Virus genome (UHGV): UHGV-0057186
Source: a virus
Length of the DNA: 64,000 bases
Strand: one strand, 5' to 3'
The translations under genes and the position numbers were made by a program. The notes below the pieces were generated by a model that made no database searches, was not told where the DNA came from, and saw only the letters and a list, made by a program, of their open reading frames with translations. Positions 38,905 through 40,533 of this stretch are shown here, one piece after another (the stretch's first letter is position 1; each line of letters begins with the position of its first letter).

Positions 38905-38934
38905 TAAAAAAGCCCCAACCTTTTGGTCGGGGCT
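38905..38934 (-). terminator. Intrinsic terminator downstream of IPI-like gene region
   Basis: Hairpin agccccgacc-aaaa-ggttggggct + TTTTTT on minus strand. Confidence 0.6.
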
Positions 38935-39078
38935 AAGAATGTTATTTGATTTGTTTAGCAGACCAAATGCGGTCTTTGATGATTTTTTGGAGGTCTTCAA
39001 CATACTCTAGGTCATGAGCATGTGGATTATCTTTAAAACTATAAGCTCGCGCAAGTTTCTGGCCTTCGGTCTTAATTA

Positions 39079-39402
39079 TCAAAAGTTCTTTAAGAATTGC
39101 TTCATACCTAGAGATAATTCCTTTAGCAATATTTTTTCTTGTGCTGCTTTAGGGTCAGCCTTAGGAGCAGGTTTACCAGAAGGTTTTTCGAAAGCCGCGC
39201 CAGTAGCAACCAGGCTTTTCCAGGCGGTGGTAACATAGTTACCCACAAAGCCTTCAGCTCTCATATCGTCGTAGAACTTGTACCGAGATTCGTCAGAAGC
39301 ATCTTTATAAGAATATTTACCAGCTTTAATAGCAGCAGTTGCTACAGCGCGAACATCTGAAGCGGATGCTTCGGTCATTAAAAATTGAGCATAAGTTTTC
39401 AT
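39079..39402 (-). CDS. Internal (capsid-targeted) protein, IPI-like
   Basis: 107 aa; N-terminus MKTYAQFLMTEA capsid-targeting sequence; late promoter and RBS aggaaat upstream. Confidence 0.6.
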   Translation of the reverse strand: MKTYAQFLMTEASASDVRAVATAAIKAGKYSYKDASDESRYKFYDDMRAEGFVGNYVTTAWKSLVATGAAFEKPSGKPAPKADPKAAQEKILLKELSLGMKQFLKNF

Positions 39403-39429: not shown

Positions 39430-39437
39430 CTATTTAT
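39430..39437 (-). promoter_or_regulatory. Late promoter TATAAATA for IPI-like gene
   Basis: Minus strand TTTTTGGTATAAATAGATGAG... 28 nt upstream of ATG. Confidence 0.6.
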
Positions 39438-39439
39438 AC

Positions 39440-39468
39440 CAAAAAGCCCCAACCTTTCGGCTGGGGCT
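39440..39468 (-). terminator. Intrinsic terminator following stable-RNA/tRNA region
   Basis: Hairpin agccccagcc-gaaa-ggttggggct + TTTTT on minus strand. Confidence 0.6.
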
Positions 39469-39518
39469 AAGCCTTGCGGCAACCTTGTCGGGGTTCCACC
39501 TGCTAAGGCAAGTGTTTG

Positions 39519-39676
39519 TACGAAACGCCGGGATTCGAACCCGGTTATTAAGTAGTTGACGCTACTCAATATTTTTAAAAGGCCATATCTCGACCATATC
39601 CGAACGTTCCGTCAAAAACGCTACTCGGCTTATGGCAAAGATATTTCCTCGAATCGATAATTCGGTGCGCCGTTTC
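39519..39676 (-). ncRNA. Candidate tRNA-like stable RNA (T4 species 1/2-type); boundaries approximate
   Basis: Perfect T-arm CCGGG-TTCGAAT-CCCGG (rc of 39527..39543) followed by 7-nt segment that can pair with a segment about 150 nt upstream; no ORF; no encoded CCA. Confidence 0.35.
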
Positions 39677-39755
39677 TGCTGTGATGTAAGAGGGCATCAA
39701 TAAACGTAAAGATTATTAACGCAATTCCTTACTCAGGGAACATCAGTCCGACGAC

Positions 39756-40310
39756 TTACCGGTAGCGACCCGGTTTCTCATTTGGTATTTCAAATTGTGT
39801 AGATTTAGTATCTAATTTTTTAACTATGGAACTTATGTCATGAAAGAAAAACCATTCGCCATTTATATGGTCCTGATTATAAATGCTGTGCATATATTTT
39901 TCAAGTTCTACTGCATCCTGGGAATATCTAAATGATACTATTTTAAAACTTTTAAACGGTGAAAATGTATTTGCTGTTATAACTCTAACATCAGGTTCTA
40001 TACTTCTTCCTATTTTATAATAATTAGGATTTGTAGTATCTACCATTATGTATACGAAAGCCTGTCGATAGCTTTTTTCTATATCAAATTCATCTTTAAA
40101 TTTCAAAAGATTTAGGGCGGCAGTCCTACAAAATACTTTCCATTTTGACAAGCGTTTGGCTTCAGTCATAGAAAAGAATTTTTTCTTATCTGTTATTTTA
40201 AGAAAAGCAACATTTTCAATTAGTTCTTGTGTTATTTCAAAATTACCACGGTATATTAATCCAGCTTTTATAGCCAAATTAATTTGGTCCCAGTCTACAT
40301 CACTTCTCAT
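39756..40310 (-). CDS. GIY-YIG-type (T5orf172-like) domain protein, putative homing endonuclease in tRNA cluster
   Basis: 184 aa; central FVYIMVDTTNPNYYKIGRS...R...E...N pattern. Confidence 0.55.
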   Translation of the reverse strand: MRSDVDWDQINLAIKAGLIYRGNFEITQELIENVAFLKITDKKKFFSMTEAKRLSKWKVFCRTAALNLLKFKDEFDIEKSYRQAFVYIMVDTTNPNYYKIGRSIEPDVRVITANTFSPFKSFKIVSFRYSQDAVELEKYMHSIYNQDHINGEWFFFHDISSIVKKLDTKSTQFEIPNEKPGRYR

Positions 40311-40330
40311 AATATTATTCTCTCAATAAT

Positions 40331-40407
40331 TTGGCCAGGGTGAAAGGATTCTAACCTTTAACCTGCGGTTTAGAGGACCGCTACTCTATACAATTGAGTT
40401 ACACCCC
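40331..40407 (-). tRNA. tRNA-Arg (anticodon UCU)
   Basis: Hand-folded: acceptor CGGGGTG/CACCCTG, anticodon stem GCGGT/ACCGC loop CCTCTAA, T-arm AAAGG-TTAGAAT-CCTTT, encoded CCA. Confidence 0.7.
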
Positions 40408-40533
40408 GTAATTAGTTCACAGCAATACCTACTCCAACAATCAAGATGTCTTCACACGAAATTAAGAGAAGAGTGATCAGTTTAACCCCTATAATCGCGT
40501 CAAGTGATATTAATGTGACAACTGTCACAAGTT

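Follow-up and report, generated by a model that had tools for sequence, protein, structure and literature searches.

The 64,000-nucleotide (nt) stretch of UHGV virus genome UHGV-0057186 analyzed here, referred to as the window, comes from a T4-like Tequatrovirus and carries, inside its transfer RNA (tRNA) gene cluster, a 184-codon open reading frame (ORF) for a T5orf172/MUG113-type protein of the GIY-YIG superfamily. Judging from sequence comparison, this ORF is probably a free-standing T5orf172 homing endonuclease gene (HEG) situated 3' of tRNA-Arg(UCU), which would drag the adjacent tRNA allele along by co-conversion. Its mobility is supported by comparison with related phages, namely by patchiness, an island of 99-100% identity, apparent inter-genus transfer and the existence of filled and empty sites; nuclease activity, a target site and homing are properties that we infer for the encoded protein. 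The initial annotation had noticed a 184-residue ORF between tRNA-Arg and a stable-RNA region, and this is exactly what lies at 39756-40310 on the minus strand, with tRNA-Arg at 40332-40408 and homologues of the stable RNA genes rnaD and rnaC. The ORF, its parts and the adjoining elements are as follows:

39756..40310 (stop codon included), minus strand: ORF of 184 codons with an ATG start, T5orf172/MUG113-type GIY-YIG-superfamily protein (ORF list, Pfam, PHROG, AF2 model, and the ratio of nonsynonymous to synonymous substitution, dN/dS)
40071..40310, minus strand: N-terminal helical region, residues 1-80 (model secondary structure, conservation)
39795..40070, minus strand: T5orf172/GIY-YIG-like nuclease core, residues 81-172 (invariant Y87, K99, G101, R109, E137, E152)
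39756..39794, minus strand: low-confidence C-terminal tail, residues 173-184 plus stop codon (pLDDT ~52, T4 alignment)
40311..40331, minus strand: 21-nt leader from the tRNA-Arg CCA end to the ATG, AATTATTGAGAGAATAATATT (junction comparison)
40332..40408, minus strand: tRNA-Arg(UCU), divergent allele (ARAGORN, Rfam, allele comparison)
39782..40417, minus strand: near-identity island comprising the ORF, the leader and the tRNA-Arg allele (identity to phages sutha and LF82-9, homology breakpoints)

Distribution of the ORF and evidence for mobility

Among 1,052 phage records that match the region, 11 cover the ORF, and its DNA was found in 32 records spanning at least six genera. The same 16 records carry both the ORF at 90% identity or above and the tRNA-Arg allele of the window at 97.6% or above. 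In the comparison with phage sutha, identity reaches 99.2% for the ORF and 100% for the leader plus tRNA-Arg, as against 90.7% for rnaC/rnaD, 91.0% for the left flank and 93.2% for the remaining tRNA genes. LF82-9 gives a similar picture (99.6% for the ORF and 99.1% for the leader plus tRNA-Arg, with flanks of 82.0-98.3%), and in the Gaprivervirus VR7 the block rnaC-rnaD-ORF-tRNA-Arg is 93.7% identical while its flanks are at 70-81% or cannot be aligned. On these sequence identities we take the island at 39782-40417 to be a recently transferred unit.

Genomes without the ORF complete the comparison. Phage JK1, whose flanks are 99% identical to the window, offers a near-isogenic, ORF-less backbone, and has its own, different tRNA-Arg at the place where the window has a spacer, the tRNA-Arg allele and the ORF; T4 and Aplg8 are also ORF-less at this locus. 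Within the Klebsiella phages of the genus Jiaodavirus the site is filled in 7 records and empty in the others, the ORF alone being the insertion or deletion beside one and the same tRNA-Arg allele. The empty site of Shark_ER15 reads ...GGGGTACCA (CCA end)-AATTTAAATCAC-tRNA-Thr, and the filled site of KpV477 reads ...GGGGTACCA (CCA end)-AATTTA, followed by the insert (TGAGGATAAAATT-ATG...ORF...AG, beginning with TGAGG after AATTTA) and then by ATTTAAATT-tRNA-Thr.

Two further copies deserve description. That of Aeromonas phage phiAS4, in the tRNA-Tyr/tRNA-Lys interval (positions 1501-2021 of locus L066), is divided into two overlapping coding sequences (CDSs) by an apparent frameshift, and could be either a decaying copy or the product of a sequencing error. 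Decay was also considered for UFV-AREG1 on account of truncated copies of 68 residues, and was rejected since its current record contains an intact ORF. In phage teqskov (locus L069, 1744-2116) tRNA-Thr, Met, Tyr and Asn are missing and the tRNA-Arg/ORF cassette follows tRNA-Ser after ~208 nt; this arrangement shows a deletion or rearrangement beside the cassette.

Protein family, conservation and predicted structure

The initial annotation had recognized a GIY-YIG-superfamily/T5orf172 signature in a central motif followed by conserved R, E and N positions, and had suggested profile searches as a check. Both MUG113 (PF13455; residues 85-155, E=2.6e-9, 38.0 bits versus a cutoff of 22.3) and T5orf172 (PF10544; residues 85-155, E=3.4e-6, 27.9 bits versus a cutoff of 20) exceed their curated Pfam gathering thresholds, so the proposed T5orf172 relationship was indeed recovered. 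PHROG 5032, a family of unknown function, matches the ORF from end to end (E=2.7e-59), and the 80 homologues retrieved by profile search all have the same Pfam domains or none on record. Values of dN/dS (Nei-Gojobori) range overall from 0.07 to 0.29, with 0.12 against VR7, 0.13 against AV110, 0.21 against X20 and 0.07 between X20 and KpV477. Ratios this low point to purifying selection and thus to a protein that has been kept functional, and taken together with the PHROG 5032, MUG113 and T5orf172 matches they show that the ORF is a real gene and no chance reading frame.

The central motif, FVYIMVDTTNPNYYKIGRS, lies at residues 85-103 and contains the twin elements F85-V-Y87 and Y98-K-I-G101, which fall on strands 84-91 and 97-103 in the manner of GIY...YIG. 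Conservation was followed in an alignment of 13 homologues and later in one of 74. Y87, K99, G101, R109, E137 and E152 are invariant in the 74 homologues, and T115, S117, P118 and W153 are nearly invariant in the 13- and then the 74-homologue alignment. Of the positions predicted to be conserved after the motif, R and E therefore held (R109, E137 and E152, together with H141, vary little or not at all in the 13 to 74 homologues), and N did not: N114 is conserved in the closest subfamily only and is Gln in the T5-like paralogues. Near the end of the ORF a motif F-x-[IL]-P is also conserved. By analogy with Odn, a T5orf172 protein whose nuclease activity depends on Glu (PMC10448857), one of the two invariant Glu residues may be catalytic or bind the metal.

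An AF2 model built from the 74-sequence alignment (pLDDT 94.9, pTM 0.89) has four N-terminal helices (7-15, 28-36, 42-47 and 50-74) and a beta-beta-alpha-beta-alpha core (84-170) with a GIY-YIG-like alpha/beta fold, poor prediction being confined to the last ~10 residues. The domain was thus correctly placed by the initial annotation in the middle of the protein, unlike in Seg proteins, with the core at residues 81-172 following a helical N-terminal region. A Foldseek search of predicted viral structures matched this full two-part layout to T5orf172 proteins of T5-like phages and of Aeromonas phage 44RR2.8t (template modelling (TM) score ~0.7 over 160-178 columns), and in phage T5 a 172-residue ORF has the domain at residues 75-158 and matches residues 14-170 of the query ORF at 29% identity by tblastn. 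Since the T5 ORF and its relatives share the layout, a mid-protein domain is the standard form of this subfamily and no oddity.

The N-terminal region, which includes a conserved AALNLLK helix, is conserved within the tRNA-cluster clade and is presumed to be a target-recognition module. It has almost no relatives beyond the family: when its 80 residues were searched alone, the matches were family members and two long repeat proteins, one of them with ankyrin repeats, and these two were judged artefacts. Sequence searches of the PDB gave spurious protein G matches only, no NUMOD or helix-turn-helix (HTH) Pfam match was found in the protein, and a PADLOC search for defence systems produced only weak, domain-level matches to PDC-S57 and PD-Lambda-1.

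The insertion slot compared with T4 and its relatives

The tRNA cluster upstream of the ORF consists of 10 genes (Gln, Leu, Gly, Pro, Ser, Thr, Met, Tyr, Asn and Arg(UCU)), and Rfam agrees with the tRNA calls. A 125-nt spacer (40409-40533), with no tRNA and no Rfam match, separates tRNA-Asn from tRNA-Arg; it is conserved in Aplg8, sutha and LF82-9 and absent from JK1. The ORF starts 21 nt past the CCA of tRNA-Arg, behind a leader that contains a GAGAG Shine-Dalgarno-like motif and is homologous across every T4-like carrier compared. A hairpin that would occlude the translation start, as in segB, was sought at the ORF and did not reach significance (z = -1.3). Beyond the ORF the window has the following features, of which the stretch 39436-39788 with the stable RNA homologues is 97% identical to T4:

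39664..39781, minus strand: homologue of rnaD, the species 2 stable RNA (97% identity to T4 rnaD)
39519..39657, minus strand: homologue of rnaC, the species 1 stable RNA (alignment to T4 and Aplg8 annotations)
39445..39468, minus strand: intrinsic-terminator-like hairpin followed by a T-run (terminator scan)

The hairpin at 39445-39468, a strong one, closes the tRNA/stable-RNA transcription unit that contains the ORF, and the last 8 codons of the ORF with its stop codon (26 nt, 39756-39781) form the 5' end of the rnaD homologue.

The initial annotation had put the ORF at the position of T4 segB and had regarded it as a different mobile-endonuclease lineage in an analogous niche. The position proved wrong, the ORF and segB occupying neighbouring slots. 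On the transcribed strand of T4 the order is tRNA-Ile, segB, tRNA-Arg, 1 nt, rnaD and rnaC, so that segB lies between tRNA-Ile/Met and tRNA-Arg, upstream (5') of the latter. The window phage has no segB, the corresponding slot being the 125-nt spacer, and its ORF sits on the opposite (3') side of tRNA-Arg, at the tRNA-Arg/rnaD junction that in T4 measures 1 nt. The proposed synteny comparison of tRNA clusters among T4-like phages brought out a patchy pattern that fits mobility, which lends support to the idea of a separate mobile lineage, in a slot other than that of segB.

The flanks of tRNA-Arg are occupied by other nuclease genes in relatives. Besides segB (T4, RB32 and SG1), a RAP/REase_MTES_1575-like CDS adjoins tRNA-Arg in Shark_ER15. 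This CDS of 218 residues (locus L064, 756-1412) overlaps the 5' end of tRNA-Arg like segB does, and represents a putative third nuclease family at this gene. The tRNA-Arg/rnaD junction itself is filled in Aplg8, T2L and AV110 by another ORF of 114-116 residues (MKGNVYLVVHD...) with no Pfam match (Aplg8 locus L002, 1913-2263; AV110 locus L007, 2136-2480), which in AV110 stands between the T5orf172 ORF and rnaD. Since segB, the RAP/REase-like CDS and the 116-residue ORF are all found there in relatives, the tRNA-Arg slot is a hot spot. We also considered whether the window ORF could correspond to the T2L 'ORFs of unknown function' of the SegB paper, and rejected this identity because the T2L primers match the Aplg8-type 116-residue ORF and a JK1-type tRNA-Arg.

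At its 3' end the last native codons of the ORF, GAA ATA CCA, match the 3' end of T4 tRNA-Arg (GGGATACCA) and are followed by the junction nucleotide of T4 and by rnaD; in AV110 the small ORF of T2L type is likewise preceded by ATACCA. Against the idea that ATACCA is the remnant of a disrupted tRNA-Arg stand the corresponding codons TTG CCG of X20 and KpV477, which are no tRNA 3' end, and the conservation of F-x-[IL]-P; it is probably native coding sequence. In VR26 (locus L018, 2001-2660) the homologous ORF appears to extend to 219 codons, and the point at which the frame stops within the rnaD region thus varies among carriers.

Association with tRNA genes

The start of the ORF lies 15-21 nt past tRNA-Arg(UCU) in every carrier from Tequatrovirus, Gaprivervirus, Mosigvirus, Winklervirus, Jiaodavirus and Muldoonvirus, and its downstream neighbour in T4-like carriers varies between rnaD, tRNA-Thr (with a 10-nt overlap) and a CDS. 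The window-type tRNA-Arg allele is co-inherited with the ORF in carriers of the genera Tequatrovirus and Gaprivervirus, and a T4-type tRNA-Arg stands beside it in X20, KpV477 and Muldoon. Because the allele differs between genera, the link is to the gene slot and to no single allele.

The window tRNA-Arg is itself unusual. It has the D-loop AATTGTATA and the T-loop TTAGAAT, and a U19:A56 pair, which looks like a compensatory double change, appears to replace the near-universal G19:C56 elbow pair. The change breaks the SegB core GGTTCRANTCC, which is kept in 8 of the 10 tRNA genes of the window. An interpretation of the allele as an ORF-specific immunity variant was rejected on two grounds: the U19:A56 lineage is found beside segB too (RB32, SG1) and with no HEG in VR20, and the tRNA-Arg next to the ORF is a normal T4-type one in X20, KpV477 and Muldoon.

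The association extends to T5-like phages, where the closest homologues, those of My1 and Kenya-K38 (39% identity), lie upstream of tRNA-Arg(UCU) and overlap it by ~33 nt. For a systematic sample we used 45 IMG/VR loci found with the 13-sequence alignment. All 19 T4-like or T5-like loci of this sample were inside tRNA clusters, and none of the 26 distant environmental loci had a tRNA within 2 kb. Among the 19, the gap from the upstream tRNA to the start codon is usually 15-25 nt, and the next tRNA begins -33 to +4 nt relative to the ORF end in 16. The partner tRNAs differ by paralogue group (Lys, Glu, Asp, Asn and Pro); the T5 ORF of 172 residues is located between tRNA-Cys and tRNA-Asn, and the same pattern recurs in Vibrio phage Hades (Asp-ORF-Pro) and in phiAS4 (Tyr-ORF-Lys). 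This tRNA-cluster habit of the T5orf172 family appears to have no published description, as far as an incomplete literature search can tell.

It is tempting, if rather doubtful for now, to think of the small, Zn-finger-less T5orf172 proteins as a tRNA-cluster-specialized clade that recognizes tRNA-gene DNA and hauls tRNA genes, here tRNA-Arg(UCU), as cargo. Were this so, SegB would be joined by another, independent HEG lineage that shuffles tRNA genes, perhaps amplifies them, and spreads them from phage to phage, across the divide between the T4-like and T5-like families as well; the tRNA repertoires of phages, and their resistance to defences that target tRNAs, would then be shaped by these proteins.

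Proposed mechanism and alternative explanations

If the ORF is a homing endonuclease gene, its life cycle might run as follows. The ORF would be co-transcribed with the tRNAs in the tRNA/stable-RNA operon, and its mRNA would be released by tRNA processing. Expression may be lowered because processing at the rnaD 5' end would strip off the stop codon, by analogy with what has been proposed for segB. In a mixed infection the protein would cleave the genome that lacks the ORF, at the 3' side of tRNA-Arg or close to it, and repair of the break would copy the ORF into this genome, often along with the adjoining tRNA-Arg allele. The genome of the carrier would be protected since the insertion, or allele differences, would disrupt the site.

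Several observations weigh against this explanation. Of the T5orf172 HEGs in the survey by Barth et al. (PMC10448857), 87% have Zn-finger DNA-binding domains, whereas the protein has no Zn finger; its N-terminal region shows no recognizable DNA-binding fold and no convincing PDB match. The canonical Pfam GIY-YIG profile (PF01541) stays below threshold (E=0.13, 13 bits versus a cutoff of 22.6), and a conserved Asn after E152, equivalent to N90 of I-TevI, was not found in the 13- or 74-sequence alignments. The ORF of the Mosigvirus AV110 is no closer to that of the window than are its flanks (about 80%), from which it follows that the gene is old in the subfamily as well as recently mobile. Finally, a useful gene kept by vertical descent would likewise account for the long-term purifying selection and for a position beside tRNA-Arg that stays constant in genera between which dS is saturated.

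This last point leads to the alternative that survives best, although we regard it as unlikely: a beneficial recombination nuclease of the tRNA locus, which would cut DNA in tRNA genes or close to them and be retained by selection for rearrangement, amplification or exchange of the cluster, for example to raise tRNA dosage against tRNA-cleaving defences. It overlaps with homing, and both could hold together. SegB amplifies the tRNA-Tyr locus and co-localizes with tRNAs (PMC13096335), and the placement of all 19 T4-like/T5-like loci and of the Hades and phiAS4 copies in tRNA clusters, the dN/dS of 0.07-0.29 over deep divergence and the varying tRNA content and order near the ORF (teqskov without its four tRNAs, Arg/Leu rearranged in Jiaodavirus) are all consistent with such a role. 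However, no amplified arrays were seen in the window, and a gene of broad use would not be expected to be as rare as the ORF is within each genus.

Improbable, in our view, is an RNA-directed role tied to tRNA-Arg, in which tRNA or pre-tRNA would be the substrate for processing, modification or cleavage, for instance through an attack on the host tRNA-Arg(UCU) with the linked phage tRNA-Arg serving as a resistant replacement. The constant 15-21 nt distance to tRNA-Arg(UCU) in six T4-like genera, the abutment of the closest T5-like homologues on the same tRNA gene in opposite order, the lack of a recognizable DNA-binding domain and the unusual elbow pair of the linked allele could all be understood in this way. 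On the other hand, paralogues abut Lys, Glu, Asp, Asn and Pro tRNAs, the U19:A56 allele also exists without the ORF, and X20, KpV477 and Muldoon have an ordinary tRNA-Arg beside it. Moreover, the characterized GIY-YIG and T5orf172 enzymes act on DNA (PMC10448857, PMC2330249), and the patchy, island-like distribution fits mobility better.

It is very improbable that the protein is a non-catalytic DNA-binding or regulatory derivative of a homing endonuclease, comparable to CapR of PLE satellites, which derives from HEG DNA-binding domains. The database label 'T5 Orf172 DNA-binding' for the domain and the documented domestication of HEG parts (PMC10448857) speak for this idea, but Tyr, Arg and Glu, the putative catalytic residues, do not vary in 74 sequences, and the documented case retained the DNA-binding domain and no T5orf172 core. 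Hardly credible, lastly, is an inert passenger whose pattern reflects ordinary recombination among variable clusters: T-even tRNA clusters are known recombination mosaics, but purifying selection, the invariance of active-site-like residues and the sharp bounds of the 99-100% identity island, in which the ORF lies, all argue otherwise.

Other features of the region

A sigma-70-like promoter match (TTGAAA-17 nt-TATAAT, 11/12) lies inside the ORF at 39876-39904 on the minus strand, ~95 nt upstream of rnaD; the total number of such matches in the region is no higher than the shuffled expectation. Two 31-nt direct repeats of a terminator-like hairpin (90% identical; 38907-38937 and 39441-39471) bracket a CDS of 107 residues at 39079-39402. 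The RB32 annotation records likewise 'flanked by 34 bp imperfect direct repeat', and this may be another small insertion cassette.

Comparison with known systems

T4-like phages are the classic model of free-standing HEGs, yet T4 is stated to have no T5orf172 genes (PMC10448857). Our data show that some T4-like phages, a minority, do have this lineage, placed within the tRNA operon and beside the SegB slot. If active, it would provide a second, unrelated way of mobilizing tRNA genes, which is relevant now that SegB has been found, in 2026, to amplify tRNA genes against the Septu defence, to co-localize with tRNAs and to drive segmental amplification of the tRNA-Tyr locus (PMC13096335); T5orf172 goes unmentioned in that paper. 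The strict embedding in tRNA clusters makes for a simple and testable system of expression from tRNA precursors and of target choice without Zn fingers, and what merits further work is the very regular link of this small T5orf172 clade to tRNA clusters, seen in two families of phages.

Among the systems close to the ORF is the T5 ORF of 172 residues, the apparent namesake of T5orf172, with its T5-like paralogues. They share full-length homology (about 29-39% identity, TM score about 0.7), the same size, and a helical N-terminal part followed by the T5orf172 core, and they likewise start ~15-25 nt past one tRNA gene and abut or overlap the next with their 3' end. The differences lie in the phage family (Straboviridae versus Demerecviridae) and in the neighbours, the window ORF having tRNA-Arg(UCU) upstream and overlapping the stable RNA rnaD where its T5-like counterparts meet a tRNA. 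As far as our search shows, the literature holds no experimental study of the T5 ORF or these paralogues.

SegB of T4 resembles the ORF in being a free-standing GIY-YIG-superfamily gene of the same tRNA operon that adjoins tRNA-Arg and overlaps the next RNA gene with its 3' end, and in being variably present in T-even phages and tied to the exchange of neighbouring tRNA genes (PMC2330249, PMC13096335). It is a proven homing endonuclease that recognizes the T-psi-C-encoding sequence GGTTCRANTCC and cleaves tRNA genes at their 3' ends, and since the segB stop codon overlaps tRNA-Arg, with a similar arrangement in the F-Tfl genes of T5, precursor processing has been proposed to limit expression (PMC2330249). 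The ORF belongs to a different subfamily and lies 3' instead of 5' of tRNA-Arg. Its domain order is the reverse of that in SegA-G, which have an N-terminal GIY-YIG domain and a C-terminal NUMOD/HTH DNA-binding region, and its nuclease and homing role is putative where cleavage and homing by SegB are demonstrated.

T5orf172 is described as a GIY-YIG subfamily of putative HEGs, of which the member Odn has Glu-dependent nuclease activity while homing itself lacks experimental verification (PMC10448857). With Odn and the putative T5orf172 HEGs from ICP1 and further phages (Barth et al. 2021, 2023) the ORF shares the Pfam nuclease domain, variable presence, high nucleotide identity between copies and conserved adjacent genes. 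Those proteins mostly carry CapR, DUF723 or DUF4397 Zn-finger repeats and lie near essential protein-coding genes, in contrast to the small helical N-terminal region without a Zn finger and the tRNA-gene setting found here. The GIY-YIG catalytic domains of SLX1/HIGLE, I-TevI and UvrC, for which structures have been solved, also count among the closest known systems. A parallel with an unrelated fold is provided by the HNH/His-Me finger site-specific endonuclease genes embedded in a phage tRNA cluster, for which, according to their citation in PMC2330249, down-regulation through tRNA-precursor processing has likewise been proposed.

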